Assembly (NCBI RefSeq): GCF_041260155.1
Contig: NW_027248355.1
Coordinates: 2,388,078 to 2,452,077, forward strand
Source: Ptychodera flava
Taxonomy: Eukaryota
Length of the DNA: 64,000 nt
Direction: 5' to 3'
Below are positions 11,289-61,680 of this stretch, in pieces (position 1 is the stretch's first letter; the number at the start of each line of letters is the position of its first letter). The notes under the pieces are model-generated. The model had not been told where the DNA came from. It was given only the letters and a program-made list of their open reading frames with translations, and searched no databases. Both the position numbers and the translations under genes were made by a program.

Positions 11289-11665
11289 ATGGACAGTAAC
11301 GGAAGCACCAAAAACTCGTCAGGTGATGAGGTTTCCACGCACACTATGTCGGCACCGATTCTGACGATGTACCTGACTGTTGCAGCGCTCTGTGTCACCT
11401 TGAACGCTGGCATGATTGCAGTTGTCTATATGGACAGAAAACTGCACACCATCGCCAATATACTCATCTGCAGCATGGCGGTGACTGACCTCCTCGTCGG
11501 TGTTGCCAACATTCCTCTTTACATCGCCTCGAAATTCAGCGTGTTCAGACATCTCTACCAGTGCATATTAGCTCTCAGTTTCACAATATTTCTCGGCATG
11601 GCATCGTCTTGCCATTTATTGCTTATAGCTGTTGACAGATACATTTCTGTTGTATACGCGTTGAG
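11289..11665 (+). CDS. GPCR paralog B exon 1. ATG, MDSNGST N-glycosylation sites, TM1 (LNAGMIAVV), TM2 (SMAVTDLLVG), TM3 ending DRYISVVYAL|R.
   Basis: ATG at 11289 aligns with the start of C (MDSNGST). Donor GAG|gtaagc at 11666-11667, phase 2. ORF 11250..11669. Confidence 0.85.
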
Positions 11666-12842
11666 GTAAGCTGCATTCATCTTAGCCACCAACTGAATTC
11701 GTTTTCTAAATAAGTATTCCGTTTAAAATGAGGAAGGATTGACAAGAATCCTATTTTTCAGTTTTTAGCGTGCAAAGTCCAATTTCTCTCTTCAACTTCG
11801 ATATATTTATTATTTTTTATTTATTTATTCTTTATTTCAGACTGAAATGTCCATATAAGGAAAATACAAAAGGAAGCACCTGAAAAATTCTCTCAGTCCC
11901 TGGAATATATGCTTTTTGCTCAAAAGTTCACAATTTGAAAAAAAAATACACGCCAGAGGAAAAAAAATATTATTTGCCACAACTTTCTACTTTTACAGAT
12001 TAAATTTGCATTCAAAACATAGTGCTTCATAACTTTAGCATGTGTAACCGTGCCCTCGTCGTTTCGATTTCCACCTTTTATCGATAGTGTGTCATATTTT
12101 AAAGATTGTATGTTTTCTTCAAGCTAGGCAGTTTGTAGTTAGGCAGTTTGTCTCGAATCATCGGAATGAGAAGTTCTCCGTATCATCGGAATGAGAAGTT
12201 CTCCGTAAGCGTTCTCTTCTTTACCAAGTGATTGTAAACCGCGAATACAACCTTCCAAGGTGTAGTAAAACATTCTCAGACTGTTAGATGTCACTAGTAG
12301 GTTGAGGTATCTGCCACAGTGTCGTCATGTGCGTATCAATGATCAAATGATTCTGTCCATGGCGTTCGATGAGTAGTTCTAAAGCACAATCACGGTTTGA
12401 GTTTGTCAGGGTGACGAGACCACTAATGGCACGGGCAGCTTCGTTGGTTAAATTGCTGCGTAAGTATGTGAATGTTCTCGAGGCTGCTATCGTTATGGAC
12501 GGGTGATTTGAAAGTGTCGTAAAAACTCACCCATTCGAGTACGTTTCCAGAAAATGTTTTCAATTGGAACTTCGGTAATGCGACCGTTTACTTCAACGTG
12601 TTTTTAGTAGCGTTGGCGGTATTCACTGATGAACCATTTGCATTGACCGGTTTGTTGTTTCTAATGAAATCAGTGATCTTGTCATTTCTCTCGAATATCT
12701 CGGACATGTAGTCGCCGGATTCTTCGCTTGCAGCATTGTAGCTTGGGCCTCGTCGGTATTATCTAACATGTTTTCTTCGATCTTCTGTCTATTACTATAT
12801 AAAGTTTAAATAAACTGTGATTTGTCTTCCACATGTCTGAGG

Positions 12843-14169: not shown

Positions 14170-14283
14170 GTTTGTAATTCTGTTTGCTCGACTGTTCTGT
14201 ATTTTAGAATTCGCATATGGATATGATAAATAGTCTTTAGTCGTCAGGTGGCGTAAGTACCTTTATCTATTTCTATTTTTCAG

Positions 14284-14684
14284 TTGCTACCATGTTCATA
14301 CTGTACGGTTGTATATTCAAATATGCGCGGCAACAAATTCGCAAAATTCGTGCAACCGCTGTGACCCAGGAAACGACCCAGAATTCGTCCCAAGAATCCA
14401 AGCTGAAGCAGAACATACGGGCGACAATTGTCCTGTTTGCGATAATGGGTTGCTATCTGCTGTGTATGATTCCGTCCAATGTGGTCCTAGCCATAGAATT
14501 CGTCGGAGACGGTGACACGGCTAACAACGTGCCTTACTTCGCGGGCACGGTGGTGGCGTTCTTCAACTCTGCTTTGAACCCAATAATATATGGAAGTTGC
14601 AACCGACCATTAAGACTGGCGATCAAGTCCCGACTTCTTCTTATTTGCTGCAAGAGGAAACCAACGCACAATCTCACTGCATAA
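14284..14684 (+). CDS. GPCR paralog B exon 3 including stop
   Basis: Acceptor tttttcag|TT at 14282-14283. Intron 2 is only 114 nt here. ORF 14292..14684. Carries GCYLLCMIP, NPIIY and CCKRK. Confidence 0.85.
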
Positions 14685-17589: not shown

Positions 17590-17900
17590 TTTACAATTTT
17601 CTTCTGATATACCACATGTGGGAGTTCATTTTAAAGCTCTTGGTGAAAGAAAACTTTTCACCGGCTTAGTTTATCGATATTCGAAAATTTTTGTTTTTCT
17701 CCATAGAGTTAACACATAGATGGCGGCCATTTTGAATTTCTAATATTGGTAAATCTTGGGTTATTTGTTTCTCCATTACCAAAATTTGCACCGTGACCCC
17801 CTATTTTTATTCTTGATTTTGAAAGAGAATGATTGAAAGATCTCTTGAGGAAAGTTAGAGCAAACGTTTAAGTCTTTCACTTTCGAGGTGCATACTACCT
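17590..17900 (-). repeat. Copy of a SINE-like interspersed repeat family R, about 370 bp in consensus, in minus orientation.
   Basis: Reverse complement aligns with 35265-35640 and 61305-61680 (…atatttgaaattcaaaatggccgccatc.atgtgt.aactctatgg.gaaaaa…aactaagacgg…ccacaagt…). Confidence 0.6.
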
Positions 17901-19039
17901 TAAGATGTTACTTTAAAACTTGTACAAATGTATTCAAACCACTTATATTTTAGAGTAGTTGTTAAAATGCCAAAGTGATAATAATAAATCTTAAATGTTA
18001 TCAAAAACTGCCAAACATGTAAATTACATGCTTTCGTTATTTTTGTTTGGGAGACTCGAGAAATGAGCGGTCGTTTGTTGTACTGTTAAGAAAAGTTGAT
18101 TTCATGTTTGATGGAAAAAATCGGCATATCTGAAGAAGTACTGTGTCATATTCTTTCATACCGTGCCTTCCATGGTGAAAAAATACAAGCTTGTCCCTGA
18201 GAGAGGGTGGTGTTAAACCGGTACTACAGGAACCATCTCACATTTATCAAAATAGGAGAAATCATTGTCCATTCTGTCAAAAGGTAAACAGCTGTACTTG
18301 ATGAAGTCAAACCCTAGTGATTTCCCCGCGTAGCATACTATAAGGTTATTCAAAAAATACCGGGCTTTATGTGCGAATACACCATATAATTGAGGTAAGC
18401 TTATTGTCCTCGATGCTATGCATCTCGGTCAATACCGACGCGAAGGATGTACGAGGGCCTAAATCCCTGTATTTTGTGAATAACCTTATTATTATTTACC
18501 TTTTAGTCCGATTTTACCAGAAGAAAGCTTTTAGGATGCTCCACTGACCGATCGCGAGCAGACTGAAAATACATTCAGCGAGTCCGCTAAGAACCCAGAA
18601 CGAAACCCTAACCCATCCACCCACCCAGCGCAGTGCACATGGAGTTCAGTGGCATAATAATTTCACTCAAAGTCACAGGTTTTGGACTGTCCATTATTCA
18701 CTACGTGAATTATTAAATGTTTATACGTATTTTTTTGTGTGTGAAAAATGTAAAATATTATCTTGTTTCCCGCGCTGACGTAAAGGTGAATTGGAGTGAA
18801 AGGTCAAATAGAGTACGTCCAATAACACCTGAAGTTATTTTACTCTGAGTCAAAGTTATTGGACTCCGCGTCCTCTGATACCGATACCTATCGTACGACA
18901 AAACTTCATAAGTTACAGACGCAGGTGTATAATAGTGTTTATTATCGCATTATCGTCAAAAGTTATGAATCACAGGTTCTCTCACAAATGACAACCTCCA
19001 TCATTCAACAGTAACCTGTGCTGACCTATTATCTATTCG

Positions 19040-19740: not shown

Positions 19741-20062
19741 ATAATTGATAAATCATAGAGTTACTCTAACATAAACAAGCGGTGTAGTCTTTGTATATCA
19801 GAAAAGCTGCACATTATCAATGTTGACAGATTCGCTGTTAAACAAACGCTCTGAGTTGGTTTCAAAATGTCGTCACAAAAACAAATATTATTTTATCAAA
19901 TTTACCACCACCTACGAATAGAATGGTTTGTCCGAAACATAGAAATGAGGGTGTACAGCCAGGAATCCTTTCACTTCTGTCTGAAGATTGCACGACGCAT
20001 TAAACATAGGTAACAGATAATTACTTTGTACTTGAAGTAATCTGTATATATTTCTGTAATCA

Positions 20063-20900
20063 TGTCCAAAATTCTGTTAGTAGTCATCAGCATGGATTTG
20101 TACGGGGGCGTTGTACTACAACAAATCTAGTTTCGTACACTGATTACATTGCAAATGTTATAAATGTACGTGGACAGGTAGACTCAATCTATCTGGATTT
20201 CAGCAAAGCTTTCGATAGCGTCAGTCATCCTCCTTTGCTTCATAAATTAACTTACTATGGTGTGAGCGGTAACAGTTTTAGGTGGTTTGAGTTATACTTA
20301 GACAAAAGAGTTCAACATGTGACCCTAAATGGGCATTTTTCGAACTGGAGTATTGTTACATATGGTGTCCCTCAGGGATCTCAACTAGGACCTCTCTTAT
20401 TTATTTTATATATAAACGATCTCAGTACTAAGGTAACTTTCAATTCAATGTCTCTGTATGCTGATGACTCCAAGTTGTATTAGTGTATCACACGTACATC
20501 AAATTATAGTAACTTACAAAATGATCTTGATATTGTCGAAAATTGGCGTAAAAGCTTGAAACATAATCTGAATTACAAGAAATGTATGGTTATCTCATTT
20601 ACTTTGAAAAAAGCACCTATTTTACATGACTATACACTTAACGATTTCACTCTTTCTAGAGTTGATACAGTTAAAGATCTGGGAGTATACTTAACCTACA
20701 ATCTTAATTATGCTACTCATGTTGACCATATAGCTATCAAGGCTTTCCAACTGTTAGGTTTTCTTAAGAGGACCTCTCAAGATTTTCAAGACATCAAAAC
20801 TTAAAGAACTGTGTATACCACTATTGTAAGGCCCCATTTGGAGTGTGCCAGTCGAATATGGTCCCATATCAAAAGTATTTGACTGATAAACTCGAACGTG
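20063..20900 (+). mobile_element. 5'-truncated non-LTR retrotransposon (CR1/L2-like LINE) reverse-transcriptase fragment with frameshifts. It is present only in the B unit.
   Basis: RT motifs across ORFs 20235..20483 and 20556..20804 plus upstream: HGFVRGRCTTTNL, LDFSKAFDSVSH, GVPQGSQLGPLLFILYINDL, YADDSKL, and downstream a ...YTTIVRPHLECASRIW thumb. Confidence 0.75.
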
Positions 20901-23994: not shown

Positions 23995-24165
23995 AGGTTG
24001 AAAAACATGACAGTGCCTTTACAATTTCATACATAAAAAAGACGGGTTTGCGCAGTGATGAAAACTTGGCGTTATGAGCATTGCCTCAAGATGAGACACT
24101 TTTATAAGTAGAGAATCAATGTACAATAGTGACATCTACCATGCTGTAACACAAAGCTGCCAAAG
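23995..24165 (+). promoter_or_regulatory. Conserved upstream block of paralog C. TTTTATAAGTAG lies about 60 bp 5' of the ATG.
   Basis: Same conserved block as 11115-11288. The TATA-like element is clearer here, with TATAAGTA at about 24102. Confidence 0.35.
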
Positions 24166-24542
24166 ATGGACAGTAACGGAAGCACCACCAACTCGTCAAG
24201 TGGTGATGTTTCCACATACACTATGCCGGCACCAATTCTGACGATTTACCTGACTGTTGCGGCGTTCTGTGTCGTCCTGAACGCTGGCATGATTGCAGTT
24301 GTCTACATGGACAGAAAACTGCACACAATAGCCAATATAATCGTCTGCAGTATGGCGGTGACTGACCTACTCGTCGGTGTTGTCACCATTCCTCTTTACA
24401 TCGCATCAAAATTCAGCGTGTTCAGATATCTCTACCAGTGCATCTTAGCTCTCAGTTTCACAATATTTCTCGGCATTGCATCGACTTACCATTTATTGCT
24501 TGTGGCCGTTGACAGATACATTTCTATTGTATACGCGTTGAG
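24166..24542 (+). CDS. GPCR paralog C exon 1
   Basis: ATG at 24166, ORF 24166..24546, donor GAG|gtaagc at 24543-24544. The exon is 377 nt, the same length as B exon 1. Confidence 0.85.
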
Positions 24543-24656
24543 GTAAGCTGCATTCATCTTAGCCACCAACTGAATTCGTTTTCTAAATAAGTATTCCGTC
24601 TAAAATGAGGAAGGATTGGAAAGAATCTTACTTTTCAGTTTTTAAAGTGCACGGTC

Positions 24657-25457: not shown

Positions 25458-26122
25458 GTCAGTGATTCTGTTTGTTCGTCTGCTCTTTGTTTTAGCTTAT
25501 GAATATGGTAACTAGCCCTAAGTTGTCAGTTGGGCATGCGCCCGGATATGGCTCTAACACGAACTTTTGTAGATAACACAATAGAGTGGCAACATTTAGT
25601 ATAGCGAAAATTTATACTTGATAAAATATGGTGATATATGTTTTCTTATACTGTTCGTAACGCAAATGAGATATGAAACATTCAATCCGGCCAGCTACTC
25701 ATATGACTAACATTCAGTAATGTGGTTGATCACGTGAGGACTACAGATCTACACGCATTTGCATACGCCTTGACACTGTTTTTCAGACAAAGACTTTGAC
25801 ATTTGACATGAAAAAGATTGGATATACCATAACAAATTTATCATCATTGAGCTGGAAATTTTAATTTACTCCTTTCTAACCTTCTCTCATGGGAATATAC
25901 ATTGCCAATAATCCTTGATAAATAACAGTTAGAAAACAAACGATTGCATACGGACTTGCGCGGTTGAAGTGCAAGGTCATATAACACCTAATCTTATGTA
26001 ATCGGTGTAGCATTGGAAAACGTACGAGTTTGAAGGCAAGATTTACGATTAGACAGACAACCACGGCAATGAGCAATCGCAAAGAAATGTGCTGACCACC
26101 TTCATCCATGTCTATTTTCCAG

Positions 26123-26532
26123 TTGCTACCGTGTTCATACTCTACGGTTGTATATTCAAATATGCGCGGGAACAAACTCGCAAAATTCGTGCAACGGCTG
26201 TGACCCAGGAAACGTCCCAGAATCCGTCCAAAGCATCCAAGCTAAAGCAGAACATACGGGCGACAATTGTCCTGTTTGTGATAATGGGTTGCTATCTGCT
26301 GTGTATGATTCCGTCCAATACGGTGCTAGCCATAGAATTCGTCGGAGACGATGAGACGGCTAACAACTTGCCTTACTTCGTACGACGACTGGGCACGGTG
26401 ATGACGTTCTTAAACTCAGCTTTGAATCCCTTAATATATGGAAGTTTCAACCGACCATTAAGATTGGCGATCAAGTCCCGACTTCTGCTTATTTGCTGCA
26501 AGAAGAAACCAACGCAAGAACTCACTACATAA
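26123..26532 (+). CDS. GPCR paralog C exon 3 including stop. It carries a 9-nt in-frame insertion relative to A and B (…PYFVRRLGTVM…).
   Basis: Acceptor ttttccag|TT at 26121-26122. ORF 26089..26532 actually begins on GTG. The true exon start follows the AG. The exon is 410 nt, versus 401 in A and B. Confidence 0.8.
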
Positions 26533-34924: not shown

Positions 34925-35100
34925 TTTAAGGTAGTATGCGTCCAGAATATGAAAGTTTCGATTTTCGAAAAATTAAGATGGTAAAAAGTTTTCTCACACC
35001 AAGAGCTTTAAAATGAACCCCACAAGTAGAAGATCGGAACAGAATAGAGTCCGAATATCTGTCCCCGAGAAGCGTTATACCTTAAAGGTATACAGTCACC
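34925..35100 (+). repeat. Family R copy, internally deleted, plus orientation.
   Basis: ggtagtatgcgtcc...aaagtttcgattttcgaaaaattaagatgg...ccccacaagtagaagatcggaacagaat...atatctgtccccgagaagcg. Confidence 0.55.
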
Positions 35101-35264: not shown

Positions 35265-35640
35265 TACCTTAGGGTAGTATGTGCCTCGAAAGTGAAAGGC
35301 TTGCTCAAACTTTCCTTAAGGAATCTTTCAACAATTCTCTTCCGAAATCAGGAATAGAAATCGGGGTCACCGTTCAAATTTTGGTACTGTAGAGACAAAT
35401 TACACAAGATTTTTTTTTACCGATATTTGAAATCCAACATGGCCGACATCCATGTGTAAACTCTATGGAGAAAAATAAAAGTTTCGATTTTCTGAAAAAC
35501 TAAGACGCTGATGTTTTCTTACACCAACAGCCTACAAATTAACCCCACAAGTAGTAGATCGGAGAAGAATTGTAAGAGTTTGAGAGTCCGTACATCTGTT
35601 CCCAAGGCGCATTCTTCCTTAAGAAATAACCTCAACACTT
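35265..35640 (+). repeat. Family R copy, near full length, plus orientation. It is preceded by a 120-bp repeat R3 at 35150-35270 that also occurs at 16305-16430.
   Basis: gggtagtatgtgcctcgaaagtgaaagg...ccgatatttgaaatccaacatggccgacatccatgtgtaaactctatggagaaaaat... Confidence 0.6.
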
Positions 35641-37845
35641 TGATTTCACTTTAGACAGAAGTCGTAGGTGCACTGTCTATTTTTATCATCTCCATATTAA
35701 GGGGTGATCGAGCCACTAAATTTTTTACCAACAATTTTCGTTATTTTATTAATTATATTATTGATTTTTGTTCGCTATTTTTCCGCTGAAAGTGTGCATA
35801 AGAATTTAAATTATCACTTCTCAGGCCTTCCAAAACAACAGTTAAAGCTGTTGCAAACTTAAAAGTAATGACCACGCCTTATCAATACTTTGTAGGATTA
35901 TTTAGATTTCCAATCCAACAATTTTGTTTATTTTCACATACATTATTGTTCAGATATTGCACATTATATGAATCAAATAAAAATATGGGGTCACGAGCCT
36001 ATTTACATGCTACATCGCTTAACATCACCCACTCCCCATATGTGAAATAAAAAAAATCACAATATGAAGAGAAATATGTCCTGTTCAAATTATTTTGTTG
36101 GTATTTTTAAATACTTTGTAAATATATCTACAAACATTTAAAACGTACAACTCAACGATAGTATAATTAATCATTCAATGATCACTGACCACGTCCACTT
36201 TCATGCCAAAAGCTCAGACAATATGTTGTATGAAGATAGGTTTCCATCAAAACCACGGTGTAATTTTAACAGTAAACACGGTCCCGTACAGTGGACGCTC
36301 GCGTCGTATAGTGCGCGTTCTAATGTTTGAAGCTATGATGAGGTAGCAAATGACTCGATCACCCTGAAGAACTTTCAGATATTTCATAAAGATTTTCAAT
36401 GATATAAAAGCGCCCTCTTTCGAAATTGGGAGGTGTTTTGACATGGGGATAAGTTTCCAGGATTTATGATGGTTCAAATTCGTCTTTGTTATTTTAAAAC
36501 ACCGGTACCGGTAACAATGCCTGATTGTAATATCATATACAATGACAGTACACGAAATTACCCGCTATTCCCTTTGATTTGAATCACTGAAGCTTACTTT
36601 CATATTTTTCTCAATCCTTCATATAAGCAATAATGTGAAGCTGTAGAATAATTGTTAAATAAGGTATAGTAAAAGTACGATTAGATATTTCAGTGAAAGT
36701 TTCCAAATTAGCATTAAACAACCACATTGTTCAGGTACTTCAAATGCTATACTTTTGGGCAGCAAGTTATTACGAAGTCAGGTTGAAGGGGTCAGGAAAC
36801 TTAGCACGCAAATTTATTTTGTCATTTCTATTGGAAAAAATCGATATCATTTCTTCAAACTTTTTAGAACTAGTCTGTGACTTTGTCTACACGTGAGAGA
36901 CATGGTAGACTTCACTGCGGAATATCCGAGGGTTCAAATCATAATGAATTCTGGGAAATCTACAGTACTGTGATATTATGACGATCAAATATTCTCGTAT
37001 CATGGTTTTGTTTTTAAGTGAGGACTTGCAAGTAGAAAAAAGACCATATCAAAATGTACAATGGACAGAGTTAGAAGATAGAGGCACATGCGGAATCCAT
37101 TAAGAAAAAAACAAGTTCCAATAATGTAGTAAAACATCGCAAAGGTCATCGATTCACGTTCCCCAAATTATTTAGAATTAAAAACATGATCCCAATTCCA
37201 GTCTTCAGGTTCGGTTCAAAGCCACTCCCAGTTTCAAAATAAATTTCCATGTATGATAAAAATCTCTCCCTTTTTTGCATAAGAGTTGTTCTGATTCTAT
37301 CAACAAAAGGTGCGACCATAATAGGAATTGGATGATAACTTAGGTAGATTGTTATGTCGCTTATTTGCAGAGTAATACCGCCCTCTGTCACCATTCCCAG
37401 TAGAGTGTAGAGACGCCCAGTTGATCAAGCAAGATGTACTATTTGGCTAGCTGTGTCAAAACCACTCAAAAACTGCACAAAATTTATATTTTATGATGAC
37501 AAACACTCCGTCAATTTCACTACAGAAAATCCAGATGTTTCGTAAATGTAGTCCAAGAGAAAAACTGAAATCATATAATTATCTGGAAAATCCGAGTCCA
37601 GACTGAGGATTCCTCCAGCCAGCGACAGACCGTCATGAATAACTTGCAGAGCCTTGGGTACTTTTTCAACGTCTCGAAATCTGTGGTAATTGTCCTTCGT
37701 GAGTAGCGTAGACCCTAGTTCGGAAAGATAAGGAAAAAGGATTATTACACTACAGTATGTATATAATGGTGTTGGTGAGAAATGAAGCCTTGGATTCTGA
37801 TTCGCCTATTTGAATCGATATAGTGTTATAACTTTCTTGAAAAAA

Positions 37846-40448: not shown

Positions 40449-40908
40449 CTGTTGGTGGAAATTCAGCCGTAGGTTGTATGAGTCTCAATTGCCTCTTCGT
40501 AATAATATCGATTACTGTTTTGTCACCGACCCCTGGGGGTAGAATATAGCGAACTTGGAGACCAATGTCAGATAAACGCCTCTCGGCGCTGACGATTGAA
40601 AGTCTTATAGCATTTGAGTACTGTATTTCCCAGTGACCAGGTGACATCGGTCCGTCACATCGAATCCCAATTTCATACTTTGTACTCCACTCTTTAACAA
40701 GATCCGGGTGTTCTTCTGCAAAGTCACCATACACGAACAAGGTCAAGGGCACATCAATGTGGTATGCTTCTATTGTAGTGATCAGTTTTCGTGCTCTTTT
40801 TGCGTTCATTCCCACTTGAATTACAATAGATACAACGCGCTTGTTGTCAGCCTTTGGTAAACAGCCTTTGATAACGCTTCCCATTGCACCGGGCGTATCG
40901 CTTGGAAC
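40449..40908 (-). CDS. Internal coding exon of 460 nt, phase 0 to phase 1, of an unidentified protein (VPSDTPGAMGSVIKG…LFVYGDFAEEHPDLVKEW…RQLRLIQPTAEFPPT).
   Basis: ORF 40438..40974(-). Acceptor tttatttcttctttgttccag| at 40909-40911 and donor CAG|gtaatg at 40447-40448, both close to consensus. Product not recognised. Confidence 0.5.
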
Positions 40909-41759
40909 CTGGAACAAAGAAGAAATAAAAAAATTATTGACTGTCGTCAAAATTCCCCTGTAGACCTTTACCATCTAGCAGTGAAAAGGAAAGCCTACAA
41001 CATTGTCAACGATTCTGATCACCCTCTTCATGGTTACTTCCAGAAGCTCCCGTCAGGGAGACGTTATCGGGTCCCTCATGCAAAGAAAAAGCTCTTCAAA
41101 AAAGTCATTTCTTCCATCAGCAGTTTTTAAACTAAAACTTGATGTCATTGTTTTAAACTTCCAGTTGGTCCTTAGTTGTTTCCGTCTGTTTCAATTTTTG
41201 TATCTATGTCGCTACTTTGTGTGTTTTTAACCATTTCAATGTGTAATAGCGTCCCTTATTATAGATTTCTCTTGCCAGTTGTACTTTTTTAAATATGATG
41301 AGCCTGAAGGCAAATTTCTGCATGATTTTTATGGATAATAAAGTAAATGAATTGAATAAAGTAGAGTGCGGCGCCTTGTTTCACTGCGGTATGCGCAAAT
41401 CTTAACAATAACACATGTTATTATCCAAGACTTTGAGCACTCGTCGACATCATGGTTTTGCCATTTTTATGGACCTGTCTTAAAAAGTTTGTTTTATTGT
41501 ATTAATGTATAACATTACCGGCCAATAGTGTCCAGTATATTATAGAGGCTTTTAGAGTTACGCATTTTCCCTAATGAGAGCAATCATCATGGAGCCAATC
41601 AACACAAGTTTACCGGAAATATCAGAAATTAATCAATGTATCGACCATGGAATACTCGTGACATAATGACGGTATCCATTCGTAGTGACACCGTCATTAC
41701 GTCACTCGTATCTTTAATTCGCTGAACCACAGAGTAACATAGACAGAGTAGCAACACTT

Positions 41760-42445
41760 GCATGCCTTTTGTTCCATGGTCGTCTCGGTAGACTATCGGC
41801 TTTTCATATTAAAATGAGCTCCAAAGGTGTTAAACTTTTTGGAGGCTTTGTTTGTGGTTGATGATTACACGAGATTATGCGAAAAATACGACGAGATGGC
41901 ATCGTACTGCCAGTCGCGTAGCAACCATAGTTACTTTGTGAGCTCTCAGGCCAGAAACACTGCTTCACGCCAATCAAAACATAACACGGCAGCAGTTTCA
42001 TAAACATGTCCTTCCTTGACGCACGTGTAAAAGAGGGTACGACTGACCGTAAACCATTGAGTAAAACAAGACAGTATCGATAAAATACTTTAAAATTTGG
42101 TTCAAACACACTCATTATATATTCATAAAAATATGAAGGAATTTTTAAAACGGTAAAACTCATTTTCCTGAAGCTCAAAACACTCCCGTTTTCGCCAGCA
42201 CGTCAATTCTGCTCAGCACCACACGACAACAACAATACAAACTTTGCCGAACATACTTTCGCTTAACAATTGGCGAAAATCCGAAAACTACCAAAGGATT
42301 CATGGTCGGCACTCTTCGGAAAAGAGAGGCGAGAGCAACCTGAGGCGAGGCGAACATGGATGGGTTACGTAACCGCTTCACGCCTTAAACAATACCCGTT
42401 GCCACTCTATCTATCTTTCTCTATGGCTGAACGAAGAAAATATCA
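41760..42445. repeat. Arm 1 of a large inverted repeat of about 670 bp. It pairs with 49775-50410.
   Basis: Reverse complement of 49790-50410 aligns throughout. The mirrored ORFs 41804..42178(-) and 50150..50347(+) give ...CYVLIGVKQCF.PESSQS.YGCYATGS.MPSRRIFRIISCN... Confidence 0.8.
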
Positions 42446-43325
42446 ACAACAACGTGTATATAGTCCCACGGAATATTTCTCTTTGATGTCATCGTGTAGG
42501 AGTGTGTGTTTTTTGTCTTGTTTTTGTTAGTTTTGTTTTTGGTGGGGAGCCGTAAAACTTCGAGTCGTCATTGCTGCTTGTTACGCTATATTATCGTACG
42601 TGTCCTACCTTGGGTGGGTTTACACTGTCGAAATCATTAAATTGCTTTGTTTCTGCAGACCATGTGATGATATTGGACACTTGTGTAGCCACTTCCTTTG
42701 TAATACGCGATTTTTCTGCGGCTGTCTCGCCAGTTGGTTGACCAGGGTGATATTCACCGTAAAATCTTTAATTAGAGAGATGCACATTATTGTAATTCGA
42801 GGAATTTGATCGTACATCTCATTCATCGGTGTGTCAGTGTAAGGAATACGTTCTGTAACGATTTCAATGTGTCTGCATATATGAAAACTTGATTTTCAGC
42901 ACTTTCAATCATAACAAGATATTTCAAACAATCGTTTCTGGATTTAATTCCTAATTCATTGCTTCTTCTTCATTTTTTTGACAATTTGGAAAACAGCTAG
43001 CAAAATCTGAAAAAAGTAACAAAACCTATACTAGAAAAGAGTTTGTCGAATTAATCCGTCTTTTGAATGAATTTAATAAATGAATGAATGAATAAATAAA
43101 TAAGTAAACAAATAAATAAATAAATAGATAAATAAATAATTTGAAAATCTGCAAAATTAAAAAAACAGCAACGAAACCTATACAAGCGGACAGTTCGTAC
43201 AAGTGATCAGTTCTTTGAATTCAATCAATCAATCAATCAATCAAATAACTTAACAAATTACCAGAAGGGGAATTGATTACTCATGTCACACAGCGAAGAT
43301 AGAAATGAGAAGGATATGAGAAATA

Positions 43326-43733
43326 TTACTTATCGATCCATGCCATCGTGCCGTCTTTCAGCATCTTTCGCAGGATACCATATTCTGCGCCTTCGACGTC
43401 CAGTTTAAAGATGACATAGTCTTCCTTATTGATATTCTGTTGAATCCACTGTGATAGGTCAATCGTCGGGATTACGTCATGTTTGGACAGCTTCCTGGAA
43501 CCGCCATCTTCTTTGTCGACTCCCTCAGTGTTACTGACGAAGAGACTTCCGCCACCCCATTGCATGTCTTTACCATGATTCCTCTTACCAGGAAACCAGG
43601 TCCCTTCGTTGTAGGCAGTCATGTTACCTGGTGTTAAAATGGCAAAGAAAAAGTTGTGGTTTGTGAAATTATGCGCATCAGATGAATGCGATCCTGAAAT
43701 TCCAGCTTTGTAACGAACTGAAGCATACCCAGA
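43326..43733 (-). CDS. Exon encoding the C-terminal half of the FkbM-like domain (…TIDLSQWIQQNINKEDYVIFKLDVEGAEYGILRKML…) through the TAA stop. A possible read-through donor GATAA|gtaata overlaps that stop.
   Basis: ORF 43326..43622(-), with the frame open upstream to a phase-0 acceptor ctttcag|TCT at 43734-43736. This matches the phase-0 donor of the 48904 exon. The KiDvEGaE motif is present. Confidence 0.55.
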   Translation of the reverse strand, partial: SGYASVRYKAGISGSHSSDAHNFTNHNFFFAILTPGNMTAYNEGTWFPGKRNHGKDMQWGGGSLFVSNTEGVDKEDGGSRKLSKHDVIPTIDLSQWIQQNINKEDYVIFKLDVEGAEYGILRKMLKDGTMAWIDK

Positions 43734-46639
43734 CTGAAAGATCTGTCGCTTGAGGGCGCTCTCTAAACCCCGCCTTTCTCAGTGGGAGAGGGAAACATAG
43801 AGATCGCCCTCGAGCGACGGATCTTTTAGTCGAAAACATACCGCAGTATCGCAATTTTTGGCCAGAATCTATTTGCTTTAGCGATTACACTACGGTGCTC
43901 ATACCATCGCCATTTTACGTATAACTGTCTTTCTCTGCATGTCAATTTTAATATGCCTGATTGTGCAGCAGATTAGTGTCAAGGTCACAATTACCTAGAC
44001 GTAATACAGAGTCTGAAAACCTTACCAAGTGCAGTTCTTTGTGTCATAATGGTCTTAAATGTATTTTGTGTCATAATGGTCACTAAGCCTATTAAAGTTA
44101 CTTCAGGGATAGGCTTTGATGTGATCCTGCGAGAGGCGTCCAAATGTTAAGAATGATATCATGAACCATGAACGTGGAGCTTAAATGACCAGTGATGTTG
44201 ACGTTTGAAGATTTTTTCAGCATTTTTGTTTAACAAGATTTGAGCTAATTCGGGAAAATTGGATGGGAGTAATTATTAGGAAAGCGTAACAAACTCAAAA
44301 TTTTTACAAAATGATCAGTAGAATAGTGTAAAATTTGAAATATTGTTCTCATCGAACAAAACAACAAAAACACATCGATTATTTCATACTTCTTTCATTG
44401 GATTCTTTTTTTTACGAAAACAACTTTATTTTGTGTAAATGTTATAAAGAAACGAGACATAGTATTTAAAATATTTCTGATTGATGACTTTTGAGTCAGG
44501 GCACTTTTGATATGTCTCTAACTTTTAAGCGAATTTAGGACTTCACAAACACTAAATTGAGTCAGGACACATTTTAAATGACCCTGACTGACGTAACTGT
44601 AAATCAATCTAAAAACTTCATTTTGGTTGAGGCAAAGTGACAAACTGAGATTAGTACTAGTGTTTCAGTAATGAAGAAACTACAGACAAGTTCACACATT
44701 TCCATTCAAATATGAATATTGTTCATATGTTTTGAACAATATTGCATTAGATACTATCATGCACTGATACTTACTCATAACATTTCAACAGCATCGCAAA
44801 TTTTGAATAAAATGATAAAGATTGTAAGAATAAATGGTTTAATAGTAGACAAATTTCTTAAAATCTTGAGAAATTGTGGCAATCCGATGATCCCAATTTA
44901 GTTCCAATCTTGTTGTTTTTGTTTTACTGTTCTACTCCCCAAAATTTGTTGAGATACACAGTATCCAGCTTGTTAACTCAGCCTGTACATGTCCAAAGTG
45001 CGTTGTTGTTATTGTTGTTGTTGTTGTTGACAAGTGAATTCTGATTCGGACTTGAATTCAAATGTAAACAATAACAGTGCATTTTACCCATACAGATCGT
45101 TTACTACCTTCTGAGGTAGAAAAAATCATATTAGCCCCCTTTCCCGCCTCAGATGGGCCGTCCGCCGTGTACATAACGAGGAAGACTCAGGACTGTGGAC
45201 CGCATTAACCAAATTTCGTGTTTGAAAACGATGCACATAGCACATTTTTTCTGAACAACAATTAGTCCTAAATAGCAATGGCAAACATGGCCATCTGTGG
45301 AGCTTATACGGTATTCAGGGTCTTTCAATACGCAGCTGTGCAATGGAAATACGAGGAAAAGAGCCCTTTTATGTCCTGTTTTGTCATGCGTGTCTATTCT
45401 TGGTTGGATGTGCTATTATATTGTGTCGGTAATTTATTGCTCTTACGTAATACAAACCTTGCATTTTAATAAATGGCTATGTTTGTGTCTGGACCCTGGG
45501 GTGATTGCAAGCTTACCCTCAGACACAACAACAATCCGACGGGACTACCTGTAAATTTGACATTATTTAGAGTGCAATTAACTAAAACGTCACATTGAAG
45601 CAGAGGGATGATTTAAACTTGGGTTTCTCTGTTGATGTTTGACTTCGAATTATTTCTTTCATACCCAGGAGTCGGTACAATTGTGATACAATTGGATTGC
45701 TTTGAGTTCACTCTTTCATGACCAGCAGTGTTAATATGAAATAATTTTAATACATTTTTAATACATTGCGACTGCTTTGAGTTTTCATGTATAATTTATT
45801 AGTAAGTGTGATATATTGGTACTTAGCACAAAATACGGGCAAGCATCGATCAGGACTAGACCATTCCATATTAGGGGGCTAGATAAGAATGACAGAATAC
45901 AGTTCTTCCTCCAAAGATTTCACATATTGTATATTATAATAGCCTGATCGTACACCCACCCCCCAAAAAAACTCTTTTCATATTGCTTGTCAAGCTTATA
46001 ATTTTCTGCAAACGCATCTAGCCCGAGTCGAGAGAAATACTCGGTAGCCTCCTTGTGACCACTCTCTATTACGATATTATGACGCATCGGTTAATCCATA
46101 CTCCTATCATACAATCGCATCATGTCGCAGAGGTCAGTTAAATGGCTCTCGACAACGGCTTTGCTCTATCAACCCCCTTTTTAGTCTGTGATATTTCTTA
46201 TAACGACATGTTATAAACATTTTTCTCCCACAGTTCCTTCACCGGATTGAGGGACTGTACATCTCTCCTTACTCAACTTGTTATTGTAATTCTGAATAAT
46301 TGACCCCACACTTCTATTGTTAGTTACAGTCAGTCCACAAACATTGCCTAATCACGTGGCATACATTCTAATCGCACTCTATACTAATTAATAGAAAAAG
46401 GAAGTAGTCTGTTCACGTAATTAGTAGGGCTCGTGTGCAGCGTCTCTGAAGCTGCTATCTAATTGGCTGTTATAATTGAATAATACAAATGGACTCCCTA
46501 AGTTGCTGTGAATAGTGACAATCGAAGGACACGCTGCACATCAGCATAATTAGTACGCTGCATCGAAAGTGAAATTACAGTTTTGCTTCAATTTTCCTTA
46601 GTGACAGTTTTATCAATTGACTTTCTAATCAAGAATAAA

Positions 46640-46870
46640 CTCTGGGGTGTCCTGACATTTACTGATATTTGAAATTCAAAATGGCCGCCATCCTTGTGTC
46701 AACTCTGAAGTTGGGCAAAACACTTTGCGTCGCTTTTCAAAAACTAAGACGGAGATTTTCTATTACTCAACGGGCTGTAAAATGACCCTCTACAAGTGGT
46801 AAAAAGGTCATTTGGGAGCCTAAATATCTGCCCCTGAGGCGCGATATACTGTAAGGCATCCATTACTGTG
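46640..46870 (+). repeat. Family R copy, 5'-truncated, plus orientation.
   Basis: tttactgatatttgaaattcaaaatggccgccatccttgtgtcaactctgaag...aactaagacggag...atatctgcccctgaggcgcg. Confidence 0.55.
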
Positions 46871-47164
46871 ATAGCAGAATGAAAGTAGGCAAATACATGC
46901 CTTGACTTGAAATATCACTGAGGCGATTTAAAGAAAATTGTTTGCGGTCTTTGGATTGTTGAAAAAACCTACCATGCAGCCAGGGAAAACACAGATCAAA
47001 AACACAAGTGTATTAATATAAGCTCAATCTTTGTTTGGTTTCCTTTGGAAAAATTGTATTTGGGGTTTTGAGACCGCTTGTCTCGAAACCCTATTGTAAT
47101 CGTTCTGTTTTTTACTTTACTTCTTCACACACGTAAGCAAATGTCATAGCCTTGTCTGTCTGTC

Positions 47165-47165
47165 C

Positions 47166-47197
<32 letters not shown>

Positions 47198-47221
47198 CTG
47201 TCTGTCTGTCTGTCTGTCTGT
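47165..47221. repeat. (GT)n(CTGT)n compound microsatellite
   Basis: Direct read. Confidence 0.9.
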
Positions 47222-47309
47222 TTACACGATAACTCATAAACGCCTGAAAAGATTTAAGTCAGGTTAGGAAGACAGGTACCATATGCTAACTGCAAAACTA
47301 ATTAGATTT

Positions 47310-48000
47310 TGGTTTGTGTGGACTGCATATTAATGAACTTATGACATATCATTCTATTTTCATTACGATTTCCCTATGGAGACAGTAATGACAGTATCGA
47401 CATATATTAAGAAATACTATACAAAATTTCATGAATGACAATCTCAAAACATTATAGTGATACTGTGAGTGTCATATCAATTACATGCTCATTTGCATAT
47501 TTAATGAACTTTTGTACTTGGTGACATGACTCTGAATTCCTGCACAAAATTTAATGATACATGCAACAAAAATTGATCTGATATATATCTAATTGTACTT
47601 AGAAGCATCGGGCAGTGTCAAGTCAATAAGTAGCTCATTATCATATTTTATAAAGTTTTGTAATTCGTCGTATAACTCCGAAATAACTACACCAAATTTG
47701 ATGAAAGCTGCAGCAGATACTGATCCGACAGATATCTAACTGTGGTGTAAAGCATTTAGTGTGTGATGCATATTGAATCAACTTGTAATTAGGTATGCAA
47801 CTCTGAAATTAGCTCACCTAATTTAATGAAACCTGCTAAAGAAATTGATCTGATAAATATCCAATTGTGCTGAGAAGCATTGGGCAGTGCCAACTTAATA
47901 AATAGCTCATTTGCATATTTATGAAGTTTTGTATTTAGTCATAAAACTCCGAAATAAATGCACCAAATTTGATGAAATCTGCTGTAGAAACTGATCCGAT
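47310..48000. repeat. Tandem array of about 4 copies of a roughly 150-bp unit (…ttgcatatttaatgaacttttgta…gaagcatcgggcagtgtcaagtcaataagtagctcat) inside the FkbM gene intron.
   Basis: Direct repeats are visible by eye at 47488, 47630, 47770 and 47905. Confidence 0.65.
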
Positions 48001-48049
48001 TTAAGGTACCTTATGAAATATGCATCTATTTAATTCTGGGCTTGTAAAT

Positions 48050-48660
48050 GGGGCCAGAGGTCTGATTTTGGGTATACATGGATAACTATTGGATAAATTT
48101 CTTTTGACTAAATGTCACCTGACTTAGATCACCTCTGACCTCAACTATACCTTTATACCTATCAACCATTAACCGTAGGTTCTACACCTTTCATATTTAG
48201 TATGATGGGAGACCTTATGAAGCAACATCCTATACCTCGCTATTTATGAGCATATCGACTTCTTGGCTAGCCAATAGAGCTATAGGTGTGATTTCTGGTA
48301 CACAGGTATAACTTTTTGATAAAACTTTTAACAAAATTTCATGTGACCTCGATGACCTTTGACCTTAGAATTACGTGTATTTACCTATAAAGTGCTACAC
48401 CTTCTGCATCATTGGATACCTTTTAACATCCTGTACCCTATTAAATATCCGCATATGTAATTATAGGCTAGCAAATAGAGCTAGACATCAGATGTTTTGT
48501 ACACAGGGATGAATTTTGGAAAATGTTTCTAGCTTAAATGTTAGATGACCCGCGACTTCTTTGACCTCATTAATTGTGCATGTATCTCATTTTCAGTTAT
48601 CCTATTTAGCTGAAGGTGTAATTTTGGTAAACGAGTATAACTAATTGACCATTTGCTCAT
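48050..48660. repeat. Second tandem array of about 2.5 copies of a roughly 230-bp unit (…ctagccaatagagctataggtgtgatttctggtacacaggtataac…).
   Basis: The repeated block gctagc[c/a]aatagagcta... recurs at about 48258 and about 48470. Confidence 0.55.
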
Positions 48661-48903
48661 TTTTCTTGGAAACCCTTAATTGCTGTTTTGCAGCTATATT
48701 TGTATTTGTAATAGTGTTAACATTGTGTTAGTTTTCTTAATTTTCTCTGAAAACCTACCGGTATAGGCGGGAAGCGCCCAATTGAAAAGCGTGAATAGCG
48801 CACATTAATTCCCCAGGATCATTTAACCATGGATGTAAAAAATCTATTTTTTACATCCATGATTTAACTGAGCCCTAATATTACATTAATTTTGTTTTAT
48901 TAC

Positions 48904-49168
48904 CGACAGCCATCTTCCAAGAAACTGTTGTGCATTCCTTCGTATCTGGTAAGTTAACCTACCGTCCTTATCAGCCACACCAACGGGACAGTGAAGGACA
49001 TGGCCTTTCCCGCGGAAATAGGCAAAATATGGCGCCAAATCGGCGTCGATCTCGAACGAGTGAATGATGTAATCGTCTGCATCCGGGTAAGCTTCTCGGA
49101 AAAGGTTGACAGTTGAAGCAACGTTGGCTCCGCAATCAAGCAATATCTTTCTTGGTCCAGGTTTTGGT
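48904..49168 (-). CDS. Exon encoding the N-terminal half of an FkbM-family (Methyltransf_21) methyltransferase-like domain (…LLDCGANVASTVNLFREAYPDADDYIIHSFEIDADLAPYF…HCPVGVADKDGRLTYQ…). The 5' boundary is uncertain. A candidate acceptor tgtag| lies at 49169-49170.
   Basis: ORF 48886..49143(-). The DxGAN motif and the ...A.sDkdGkaklY block of the FkbM domain are present. A donor TCG|gtaata at 48902-48903 (phase 0) lies just before the in-frame stop. Confidence 0.55.
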
Positions 49169-49636
49169 CTACATTAAGTAAACGTAAAGTTTAGTCAATA
49201 AATGAGTGAGCGAATGAATGAATGAATAAATAAATGAATGAATGAATGATCGAAAGAACGAATTAATCTTAATAAGTTAGGTAGCAAGCTAAAGAATTAT
49301 TGATTAATTAATCAATTATTTAATTAAAACGCGATTACATGCTTCGGTTCATCAATTGAATAATCAATTTATAATAGCATATAGGAGAACTATGAAAAAA
49401 CATGAGTGGGGAAAGATTACTATATATTATGAGAAGTGGCGTCAGAGTACTGGAAAGAGTTCCTACAAGGGAGTTATGTGCTCATGTCACAAATGCAAAT
49501 TGCAGCAAACATATAACCTTCTTGAAGTGTGCGAATTCTATGATTTACTAACAAATAGACGTGGCGGGGATAAGACAAAATTTTGCAATATGCTGTTAAA
49601 AATTGCTCATGATTTGAATGGCCTATATACTGTTTC

Positions 49637-49637
49637 T

Positions 49638-49678
<41 letters not shown>
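49637..49678. repeat. (CTA)14 trinucleotide repeat. A related (CTT)n/(CTA)n array lies at 50498-50600.
   Basis: Direct read. Confidence 0.9.
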
Positions 49679-49774
49679 GATAAAAGTAATGTAACATGCT
49701 TACAATATAGTTTCTGTCTGTCCATTGCTGTACCTAGGTGTAAAGGAAAGCAAGAAAACGGTAAAAATTCGCCG

Positions 49775-50410
49775 CGTATAAGCACAGACAAATAGAGAAA
49801 CAGACTAGCAACGGGTATTGTTCAAGGCGTAAAGCGGTTACGTAACCCACCAATGTTCGCCTCGCCTCAGGTAGCTCTCGCCTCTCTCTTCAGAAGAGTG
49901 CCGACCATGCATCCTTCCGTAATTTTCGGATTTTTGCCAATTGTTAAGAGAAAGTATATTCGGCAAAGTTTGTGTTGTTGTTGTCGTGTGGTGCTGAGCG
50001 GAATTGGAGTGTTTTGAGCTTCAGGAAAGTGAGTTTTACCATTCTAAAAAATCCTCTCATATTTTATGAATATATAATGAGTGTGTTTGAACCAAATTTG
50101 AAAGTCTTTTATCGATAATGTCTGGTTTTCGTCAAGGAAGGGCATATTTATGAAACTGCTGGCGTGTTATGTTTTGATTGGCGTGAAGCAGTGCTTCTGC
50201 CCTGAGAGCTCACAAAGTACCTATGGTTGCTACGCGACTGGCAGCATGATGCCATCTCGTCGTATTTTTCGCATAATCTCGTGCAATTATCAACCACAAA
50301 CAAAGTCTCCAAAACGTTTAACACCTTTGAAGCTCATTTTAATATGAAAAGGCCATAGTCTACCGAGACGACCATGGAACAAAAGGCATGCCGCGTTGCT
50401 AGTCTGTTTC
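49775..50410. repeat. Arm 2 of the roughly 670-bp inverted repeat. It is flanked by CTA/CTT trinucleotide arrays and by a short directly duplicated segment (49590-49700 versus 50455-50600).
   Basis: See arm 1. AHDL...LLLLLL ORFs recur on both sides at 49356..49694 and 50454..50693. Confidence 0.8.
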
Positions 50411-51968
50411 TCTATTTGTCTGTGGTATAAGTGACAAAAGTTACAAATTAACGTTGAAAGTTGCTCATGATTTGCATGCACTACTATGTACTGCTTTTCT
50501 TCTTCTTCTTCTTCTTCTTCTTCTTCTACTACTACTACTACGAGCACATCTGCCACTACTACTACTTCTACTACCTCTTCTACTACTACTGATACTAGCA
50601 ATGACGTATTCTTACAATGCAGTTCTTGTCTGTCCATTGCTATGCCGCGGATGTAAAGGGAAGCAAGAAAACAGAAAAATTAGAAGCAAATAGTTTTGCA
50701 TATAGACTTTATGCGACAGAAAATTGGTACTTGTAATTATGTCGGATGCCAAATCGCAAACTCCATGTGAACAAAAATTAAATACAGCTATGATACTACG
50801 CCTCCACTGATATGACCATGTAATTGGTCGCTTATATTCAAATGTATGTACATGAAGGGAGCACCTCTGTCTACCACCCTTCTCTGTCTGGCTCTCACTG
50901 TCTTTCTCTGTGTCTGTCTGTCTGTCTGTCCGTCTCTCTCTCTCATATCGTCTACAAAAAAGTGCAACCAATGGCAACTTGTCCCGTTGTATAAAACCCC
51001 ACCCTTTAAAACGAATCCAAAATAGACAACACTTGATAAACGCTTTTCACTCATCGACGCAGGCACCAAAAATGACTTGATCGAAAGTGACTTGTGGAAT
51101 CGTAATACATTGATTTTGCTGTCGAGATCAGGTGACCCTCTCTTTGGCCCACACCTGAAGTCGAACTTAAGCCATCTGATTAACTCTGGTAAAACTATGA
51201 TTTAATTTTGTTACGGGCGTATTCAAATTCTTGGCCGTACGTTTTTAGTAAACTAGCATATGATTAGATATCTCGAAATACAATTAACGGCAGATGTGCC
51301 TCAGATGCGTGCTACAATTAAGTTGCCAGGAATGGAGATAAAAGAAGGGAGACTTCAGTCCTGGGGATAAATAGTTTGGCTTGCTTCGATGACCTGCTTC
51401 AAAGTATTCACCTCATAAATATCTGAAGTTCGTTTCAACTACATAGTATTTACTTTTGGTAAACAGATGACACTGGCATATCTTTCGCCCAAGACGCAGA
51501 TTCTCTTATATCTGTGTTGGTGTTGAGCGCTAGCGGGAACGTCTTTCGTTATCCTCCCATAGAGGCAAGGGTTCTCAAACAACAAATTAAAGGCGGGATT
51601 TCAATCATCAAAATAGAGAGGGTCTAAGGGAGAAAATAATCCAAACCTAAATATCAATACGCCACTACGTGATCGTGCAACTCATGATTTACTTATAGCA
51701 CTCAGTGATGATACTGCCTTTAAGGCAAAGGTCTAACAAAGCCGTATAAAACATTGCAACTGATTTACCTTCGAAAAAAAGGCTGGTAAAAACAATTATT
51801 ATCGCGTCGCCAATTAGGTGTGTCTGCTTTGAATGCAAATCGACTTCTTATTTAGATCCTGGTGTATTGATCATAAATATCGAATCTGCCTTTGTGTTAA
51901 CGACTGATTGGTGCGTGCATTAACGTTTGTGTCAGATAATTCTCATAGGAATGTTACCTCCGTAACAT

Positions 51969-52136
<168 letters not shown>

Positions 52137-55178: not shown

Positions 55179-55849
55179 GTTTTTGTTTGAAAACCAGAGA
55201 GGGTTTAAGTCTACATTCCTCCCCGTTTATTCACAAAAGTATCTCTACTTTGTCACAATTTTGTCTGTTTTGTCGAACGTCCCAATGACGAGGAATATGA
55301 ATTCTGCCTATTTGAACATGCCAGATACTTAGACAATCAGGGTGTCTAGCATACGGGTGCCAAAAGTATTGTACACTGTGTAGTCAACATTGCTTTGAAT
55401 TGAATAAATACTGGTACTGGTCCGTGACCTCTAACTCGGCTACAGATACAATTAGTCGAGATCAGTCGTATAGAACGATTCCTGTGTCCTTCTTTAGGCC
55501 CCAATCAAAAGCGCTCGAGAACGGTTGAGACCCTGCAAATGTAGTGCAGCTGGCCGGCAGTGCAAAAGACAGCAGAGCGCACAATTTTATTCCACCCCTC
55601 CCCATGGTCTCGCAGGGTACTATTGTGACAAGATGGTATTCATTAAAATATTAACGTTCTGAACGGCATGTTTCTCCAAAGGGTGTTGTACCCTCTTGTA
55701 ACTATCGATACAAGATGGTACTTAATTTAAAGTACGAATGTTCTTAGCTTTCTGGTTATAATGCATAACAAAAAATTAAATTAAAAATTTAACTCTTCCA
55801 TTTGTTCACCCTTTACTAAGGTAGAACACGCCTCGGGGACAGAAATTTG

Positions 55850-56160
55850 GGGCTTCCAAATTATCAATTCTCTTCTGACTTACCACTTGTGTGGGCTCAT
55901 TTTAAAGCTCTTGATTAAAGAAAAGTATTCACCGTCTTAGTTTTTCGAAAATCGAGAATTTTATTTTCCACCGTAGAGCTAAGACATGGATGGCAGCCAT
56001 TTTGAATTTTAAATATCACCAAATTTTTCGTAATTTATCTCTCTAGTACCAAAATTTCCGCCGTGACCCCTGATTTTTATTCTTGCTTTGGTAAGAGAAT
56101 TGTCGAAAGTTTATTTGAGGAAATGTTGAACAAATGTCTGAGTCTTTCACATCGCTTCAT
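55850..56160 (-). repeat. Family R copy, minus orientation.
   Basis: About 80% identical to 17590-17900 over about 300 bp. Confidence 0.6.
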
Positions 56161-60793: not shown

Positions 60794-60954
60794 CTCTGGT
60801 AAAGCTCGGCTACGTTCACAGCCTTCTGGTCGATTGTAGCGTCCGTAGGCATAGTGTATTGTTTTTGTACCACTCCTAAGTTAGCTAGGAAGTACCCGAT
60901 TGAAAAGCTGGACAGTATGATGAAAGCATTAGCGACGATTCGTCTGTTGGTCAT
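60794..60954 (-). CDS. Probable first coding exon of a type II signal-anchor membrane protein with Golgi glycosyl- or sulfotransferase-style topology (MTNRRIV + ANAFIILSSFSIGYFLANLGVV + stem).
   Basis: ORF 60790..61098(-). An internal ATG at 60954 is followed by a 22-aa hydrophobic segment. The exon ends at a consensus donor CAGAG|gtaagt at 60792-60793. A tandem NAGNAG acceptor, ttcattttcagcag, at about 60970 may define a 5' UTR/exon boundary. Confidence 0.35.
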
Positions 60955-61304: not shown

Positions 61305-61680
61305 GCCATGTAGTATGCGCTTTGAAAGTGAAAGACTCGCACTGTTACTCACAATTTCCCCAATGAAAATACTCCATTCTCTCACAAATCAAGAACTGGG
61401 TTACAGTGCAAAGCGTGGTGTAGCAGAGACACAAATTACCGAATATTTACCAATATTTGAAATTCAAAATAGGGGCCAACCCTCTGTTAACTCTATGGCG
61501 AAAAAATAACCTTTTCGAATTTCCAAAGCTAAGACGGTGAATATTTTTCTTTGTAAAAACGGTTTTAAATTCGATCATGTGTACAAGTGGAAGATTAGAA
61601 AGGAATTGGAAAACTTTGAAAGTCCAAATATCTGTCCCCGAGGCACGTAATGGGTCATTTTACCAACAAGGTCTCTTATA
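61305..61680 (+). repeat. Family R copy, full length, plus orientation. It accounts for the spurious ORF 61135..61509.
   Basis: gtagtatgcgctttgaaagtgaaagactcg...accgaatatttaccaatatttgaaattcaaaataggggccaac...aagctaagacggtg...atatctgtccccgaggcacg. Confidence 0.6.

Follow-up and report, generated by a model that had tools for sequence, protein, structure and literature searches.

The size of the target-site duplication that a class II transposon leaves behind is set by its transposase and is therefore diagnostic of the superfamily (PMC3706591, PMC3698922). The P element carries 31-bp terminal repeats and makes 8-bp duplications, while Galileo and 1360, which belong to the same P superfamily, make duplications of 7 bp (PMC3698922, PMC2775673). 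MITEs (miniature inverted-repeat transposable elements) are defined by terminal inverted repeats (TIRs), target-site duplications, the lack of coding sequence, a length below about 800 bp, insertion into introns and other repeats, and a high and homogeneous copy number (PMC3698922). In Drosophila, Galileo and the P-derived MITE BuT5 have generated natural inversions by ectopic recombination between copies in opposite orientation (PMC2775673, PMC3698922); after such an event the duplications are exchanged between the copies and the copies are chimeric, while the parental chromosome retains duplications that match within each copy (PMC2775673). Here we describe a pair of inverted repeats of about 640-700 bp that flanks three exons of an FkbM methyltransferase gene in a 64-kb stretch of the Ptychodera flava genome (contig NW_027248355.1). 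A preliminary description of the stretch had seen in this pair the arms of a composite-transposon-like or inversion-prone unit. Our analysis indicates that the arms are very probably two independent insertions of one family of MITE-like, non-autonomous and non-coding class II TIR transposons, 640-700 bp long, in two introns of a six-exon gene.

The inverted arms themselves are real, with limits that shift slightly from those first proposed. Throughout, the window means the full 64-kb stretch, and the coordinates of the copies are positions in it. The limits were set by global alignment and by a hidden Markov model (HMM) built from both copies:

41728 to 42425, plus strand: copy A, a non-autonomous TIR element of 698 bp (global alignment and two-copy HMM)
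49783 to 50424, minus strand: copy B, 642 bp, the same element as copy A in the opposite orientation (alignments and HMM)

A repeat search recovers the pair as three collinear inverted blocks, 41760-42021 with 50130-50391 (94% identical), 42057-42201 with 49991-50135 (84%) and 42199-42425 with 49785-50011 (88%), which blastn merges into a single match of 694 columns (41726-42416 against 50426-49794, E=0); the inverted repeat is far beyond chance. In the global alignment 584 columns match and 53 do not, and there are two indels (41 and 18 bp), each of them sequence found in A only; identity amounts to 91.7% overall, 93.1% in the interior and 77-80% in the terminal 32 columns. In both copies, homology starts exactly at CACAGA and ends exactly at TCTNTG, as placed by both the alignment and the HMM, and beyond these ends the sequence around A is unrelated to that around B. 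The preliminary description had proposed a search for further copies of the arm; the HMM finds none beyond A and B in the 64 kb, and a search with the terminal-repeat pattern, allowing up to three mismatches, matches only the two ends of B.

What carries our reading is the structure found at the ends of the two copies:

41728 to 41755, plus strand: 5' TIR of copy A, CACAGAGTAACATAGACAGAGTAGCAAC, with its partner at 42398-42425
49783 to 49813, plus strand: TIR of copy B, CACAGACAAATAGAGAAACAGACTAGCAACG, with a perfect partner at 50394-50424 (31/31 complementary)
41721 to 41727, unstranded: left target-site duplication of A, GCTGAAC, an exact 7-mer abutting the copy
42426 to 42432, unstranded: right target-site duplication of A, GCTGAAC
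49776 to 49782, unstranded: left target-site duplication of B, GTATAAG
50425 to 50431, unstranded: right target-site duplication of B, GTATAAG

The perfect match between the ends of B, for which shuffled sequences give an expectation of 0, had been noticed earlier as an inverted micro-duplication at the edge of the arm; the match is indeed perfect, but it is the copy's own pair of TIRs. Those of A are degraded in comparison with B, 23 of 28 positions matching between its two ends. Each arm forms a whole element by itself and is bounded by its own exact 7-bp duplication, and a 7-bp match at such spacing would arise by chance in the window with a probability of about 1.5e-4 for A and about 1.4e-4 for B. 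Terminal inverted repeats combined with a target-site duplication that has a fixed length but a sequence differing between the copies are the signature of independent cut-and-paste transposition, so the suggestion that the arms derive from a transposon is borne out by these termini. When either duplication is stretched to 8 bp, the identity is lost. Elements of the hAT superfamily make duplications of 8 bp, and that superfamily does not fit an element whose duplications cannot be extended to such a length.

The ends of A also differ from those of B in a patterned way. Six differences fall at the same positions in the 5' and 3' ends of A, and five of them are the identical change on both sides; both A ends are 2 nt shorter than those of B, this shortening being among the shared changes, and three substitutions relative to B are common to both A ends. 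The coincidence of the sites at the two ends of A would, taken alone, have a probability of about 1e-3. Mutations acquired at the site itself, following a local duplication, would not appear in mirror image at both ends, as the changes in A do; A and B therefore already had their different terminal variants at the time of insertion. Such a history speaks for more than one source element in the family, with at least two source lineages, and against the idea that either arm was copied locally from the other.

The sites into which the two copies inserted are older repeats of different kinds:

41645 to 41727, unstranded: what is left of a small foldback repeat older than A, including a hairpin at 41652-41711; the remnant resumes at 42433-42443 beyond A
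5756 to 5928, unstranded: paralogous foldback repeat, a 173-bp palindrome, 90% self-complementary, giving the uninterrupted "empty site" for A, ...GCTGAACGAAGAAAAATAT
49595 to 49769, plus strand: left unit of a local tandem duplication with a period of about 209 bp, containing (CTA)n, in direct repeat with the right unit
50453 to 50681, plus strand: right unit of the same duplication, 77-81% identical to the left unit

Taking out A and one GCTGAAC leaves flanks that, once joined, align without a break across the junction with the paralog at 5756-5928. The paralog reads ...ACGTCACGAGTATTTTCCGAGCTGAACGAAGAAAAATAT, in which a single GCTGAAC is followed at once by GAAGAAAAATAT, now found on the right-hand side of A; the empty site is thus a paralogous one, not allelic or orthologous. 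The hairpin described earlier as capping the arm does exist, with 25-nt arms (41652-41676 and 41687-41711) that are 84% complementary and a DNA fold of -13.8 kcal/mol (z=-3.7), but it lies outside the element, 9 bp beyond the target-site duplication and 16 bp from the first base of A. Because the flanks of A align continuously with the paralog, it was evidently the end of an older repeat that A entered, and the apparent cap is coincidental. The paralogous foldback itself sits at a break in the homology between duplicated G-protein-coupled receptor (GPCR) units in the left part of the window, where the alignment with the GPCR unit breaks down, and it may itself be a mobile insertion.

Copy B sits between the two tandem units. 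The earlier observation that this arm is embedded in a local duplication holds as far as the duplication goes, but the duplicated sequence is an unrelated and older repeat at the insertion site; the units are not part of the element, because they are absent from the flanks of A. The neighbouring tandem unit was inspected for a paralogous empty site for B, and no convincing homology past the unit boundary was found. The (CTA)n and (CTT)n tracts in these units produce poly-Val and poly-Leu open frames that mimic exons.

The element is non-coding. No Pfam domain was found in the frames of either copy, and no frame is conserved between them: the longest frame in A, of 132 codons, is interrupted in B by the 41-bp indel, and it has no homolog among 5.8 billion proteins. 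In open frames of at least 70 codons between 38 and 64 kb there is no transposase, recombinase or any domain other than FkbM. Matches to the Pfam family "Serglycin" were rejected as artefacts of the Gly-Ser spacers used in the search. No Rfam family is found in the window, and the element is neither derived from a transfer RNA (tRNA) or small nuclear RNA (snRNA) nor inserted in such a gene.

How the element compares with described families follows from these features. It resembles MITEs in its TIRs, its target-site duplications of fixed length, its short and non-coding sequence and its insertion into introns and other repeats, and for copy A a paralogous empty site is present in addition; 640-700 bp falls at the top of the size range for MITEs, and whereas a high and homogeneous copy number belongs to the definition, two copies are visible here. 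As to superfamily, the 7-bp duplication agrees with Galileo and 1360 and the terminal repeats of about 31 bp agree with the P element, so that a P superfamily origin is the best fit and offers a lead, in which the likeness is one of lengths. Both copies show a duplication within the 7-8 bp of that superfamily. The P superfamily is mobilised by a THAP-domain DDE transposase, encoded by an autonomous element with the same termini; no such transposase is seen in the same set of frames between 38 and 64 kb, and no autonomous partner either. It is by these lengths that we infer both the superfamily and the transposase. Galileo duplications have the consensus GTANTAC (PMC4168063), and the fit of GCTGAAC and GTATAAG to it is not clear. 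The Dada superfamily likewise makes duplications of 6-7 bp, but it inserts specifically in U6 or U1 snRNA genes or in tRNA genes (PMC3706591), and we rejected it for an element with no Rfam match and with two target sites that are unrelated to each other. A literature search found nothing specific on MITEs or on FkbM genes in hemichordates.

The place of the two copies is best understood from the gene around them. A gene model was built by tblastn of homologs on the window and by reading the splice junctions. It has six exons on the minus strand and spans about 60954 to 37491, with GT..AG introns throughout and the frame kept across each junction:

60794 to 60954, minus strand: candidate exon 1 (putative), a Met followed by a type-II membrane anchor, with donor AG|GTAAGT, a phase that fits exon 2 and the right length
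48963 to 49168, minus strand: exon 2, N-terminal part of FkbM (...PRKILLDCGAN...DKDG), between the arms
43330 to 43627, minus strand: exon 3, middle of FkbM (NMTAYNEG...WIDK), between the arms
42609 to 42765, minus strand: exon 4, FkbM (FYGEYH...NPPK), between the arms
40449 to 40908, minus strand: exon 5, weakly polysaccharide-deacetylase-like, outside the arms
37491 to 37714, minus strand: exon 6, which carries the stop codon and lies outside the arms

The joined peptides match homologs across the junctions (...DKDG|NMTAYNEG..., ...WIDK|FYGEYH..., ...NPPK|VPSDTPG..., ...PPT-G-STLLTK...), and the product of 501 residues has an FkbM methyltransferase domain above the Pfam threshold and a C-terminal part that is weakly polysaccharide-deacetylase-like, below threshold. 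The proteins nearest to it have an FkbM domain and come from Ptychodera flava, 83-85% identical over the part they share, and from Saccoglossus kowalevskii and Branchiostoma (62-65%). The joined peptide of exons 4 and 5 is matched over its whole length (100%) by a Saccoglossus protein, and the same junction is also bridged by a Ptychodera protein; because these proteins span it, the gene continues past arm A. The preliminary description had the arms enclosing both FkbM exons, and FkbM exons do lie between them, but they are three and not two, and the same gene has further exons outside both arms.

Copy A lies inside intron 4 (42608-40909, 1,700 nt), 183 nt from the exon-4 donor. The Saccoglossus counterpart of this intron is at the same protein position but is only about 184 bp long and without the element, which supports a lineage-specific insertion of A into an old intron. 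Copy B is upstream of exon 2, 614 nt from its acceptor, probably in an 11.6-kb intron 1 if the exon 1 candidate is correct, and otherwise in the 5' flank. The exon 1 candidate aligns loosely with the N-terminal anchors of amphioxus and crinoid homologs, and between it and exon 2 there is no other Pfam-recognisable gene. An alternative first exon can be read inside each of the tandem units beside B (49725-49631 and 50637-50492, minus strand), where an ATG frame, MDRQ(K/E)L(Y/H)CK..., runs into poly-Val from the microsatellite and ends at a weak GT donor in a phase that fits exon 2. This reading of the sequence appears unlikely next to 60954-60794, because the donor is weak, the length is wrong and there is no similarity to the N-termini of homologs. 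Within intron 2, tandem repeats of about 146 and 272 bp, 66-87% identical, occupy 47468-47999. The only homologs found for the FkbM gene are those of hemichordates, amphioxus and a crinoid, at 62-85% identity; metagenomic FkbM proteins come next, at 31-34%. The gene might be of an old microbial type and have been kept in non-vertebrate deuterostomes.

Between the two copies, therefore, lie exons 2-4 and no others, and it is this arrangement that had suggested a segment able to flip. Under that explanation, recombination between A and B, recurrent or polymorphic, would invert the 7.4-kb segment with its FkbM exons. The geometry is what an inversion by ectopic recombination needs, two homologous transposon copies in opposite orientation, about 640 bp long and 92% identical, and inverted copies of mobile elements are in principle a substrate for it; Galileo and BuT5 are the textbook cases. 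The locus nevertheless carries the marks of a parental chromosome and not those of an inverted one. In the assembled haplotype the duplications are matched within each copy, where Galileo and BuT5 inversions would lead one to look for exchanged ones, the ends of A are both of the A type and those of B are identical, so that neither copy is chimeric, and the six exons are collinear on one strand. The longest unbroken identity between the arms is 37 bp, and the frames between 38 and 64 kb hold no recombinase or other domain that might act on them. Were the segment to invert, moreover, exons 2-4 would come to lie antisense to the other three exons (1, 5 and 6) and the reading frame would be lost, which makes a null allele and not a switch. 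A rare inversion polymorphism is possible in principle, one haplotype having been seen, but we consider a segment that inverts in this way very improbable.

More improbable still is the proposal that the two copies are the ends of a composite transposon, a larger unit that brought the methyltransferase exons or could remove them. In its favour, the outer ends at 41728 and 50424 are both 5'-type termini, and their joint use by a transposase (macrotransposition) is conceivable by inference. Mobilisation as a unit is contradicted by the flanks: no duplication is shared around the pair, GCTGAAC standing to the left of A and GTATAAG to the right of B, and the duplication of each copy is intact. The terminal variants of A and B also differ. 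What lies between them is resident sequence, because its exons splice in frame to the outside exons and together with them match one continuous protein in Saccoglossus and in Ptychodera.

That the pair arose without transposition, through a local segmental duplication in inverted orientation or through an error of assembly (a palindrome that was collapsed or chimeric, for example), is about as improbable as the composite unit. Such an origin would suit a pair that is seen in only two copies near each other, but homology ends exactly at the terminal repeats, where unrelated flanks start, and an origin of this kind is contradicted by the exact 7-bp duplication proper to each copy and by the paralogous empty site of A. 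Artefactual palindromes are near-identical and adjacent, whereas between these arms there are 8% divergence, two indels and 7.36 kb of unique sequence with correct splicing, which together with the different flanks excludes the artefact.

Several observations weigh against two independent transposon insertions and deserve to be set out. Only two copies are visible within the 64 kb, and two copies that lie 7.4 kb apart, with none elsewhere in the window, are more clustered than random insertion predicts; local hopping could account for this clustering. No relatives of the element were found in metagenomic, prokaryotic or viral contigs or in the protein database: the conserved 23-mer and 26-mer blocks gave 0 matches each in metagenome contigs, and a scan of viral contigs for the element gave 0 matches. 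Beyond the junction, the alignment that defines the empty site runs for only about 11-12 nt, and its overall identity is 70%. Finally, exon 1, and with it the intronic place of B, comes from a scan and a weak alignment. Among prokaryotic genomes there was a single exact match of 23 nt to the interior of the element, in the Eubacteriales metagenome-assembled genome contig CAKUPI010000035.1 (2578-2600), and it was rejected as chance since it extends by zero bases on either side.

For two independent insertions, the course of events might be as follows. A transposase encoded elsewhere would bind the TIRs of about 30 bp, which begin with CACAGA, and cut the element out; the element would then be inserted at a 7-bp staggered cut, whose repair would yield the 7-bp direct duplication. 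In one such event copy A would have entered what is now intron 4, at the end of the older foldback repeat, and in a separate event copy B would have entered the region between the two units of the local tandem duplication, probably in intron 1. Their opposite orientation would be due to chance, and the inverted-repeat geometry is a by-product.

Even as a by-product, such geometry might have an effect on RNA. The RNA duplex predicted for A and B is about 605 bp long, with a cofolding energy of -1019 kcal/mol, a gain of -624 over the arms folded separately, and a shuffled arm gives no gain. Intronic inverted repeats of 30-40 nt have been enough for exon circularisation in reporter assays (PMC4201285). 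The arrangement recalls Alu pairs, with complementary repeats on either side of exons 2-4 at 614 and 183 nt from the splice sites, but here the repeats are known from DNA sequence alone and B is intronic only if the exon 1 candidate is correct. If that candidate does mark the transcription start, both copies would be intronic in one pre-mRNA, and double-stranded RNA between them would loop out exons 2-4, which make up the whole FkbM catalytic domain (661 nt), favouring back-splicing to a circular RNA or exon skipping and offering a substrate for A-to-I editing. A chance pair of transposons would then have turned into a post-transcriptional modifier in a hemichordate, an outcome that our modelling suggests only tentatively and that we hold to be rather unlikely.

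The rest of the window is poor in open frames and contains microsatellites, namely (CT)82 at 51970-52133, (CTA)14 at 49638-49678 and (AATA)16 at 43075-43139. From about 490 to 29450 it consists of three tandem units of about 11.7 kb, 72-91% identical, each with multi-exon genes for rhodopsin-family GPCRs; matches to Pfam 7tm_1 fall at 11229-11666, 14241-14681, 24133-24543 and 26053-26529, and also at 2493-2957. The second of these units holds a fragment of a retrotransposon reverse transcriptase at 20010-20801 on the plus strand (Pfam RVT_1, E=2e-19), or, delimited more narrowly, at 20010-20480. An interspersed repeat family is present in at least five diverged copies, 72-78% identical and in both orientations (17546-17904, 35268-35620, 55818-56150, 46657-46801, 34945-35085 and 61425-61644), of which one lies between the arms and two in putative intron 1.

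For the biology of this genome, the picture of a gene held between inverted repeats reduces to two routine intronic transposon insertions, which carry little weight beyond annotation: the locus shows nothing out of the ordinary for an animal genome and is no gene cassette that moves or inverts. It does illustrate a cheap and decisive check of claims that a segment is invertible or composite, which is to ask whether the target-site duplications are matched within the copies or exchanged between them. The pair is also a clean candidate for repeat-driven exon circularisation outside the usual model animals. The element itself defines a TIR family in an acorn-worm-like genome, with 7-bp target-site duplications and terminal repeats of about 30 bp, and if its transposase is P-like, it would add to the sparse record of the P superfamily outside insects.

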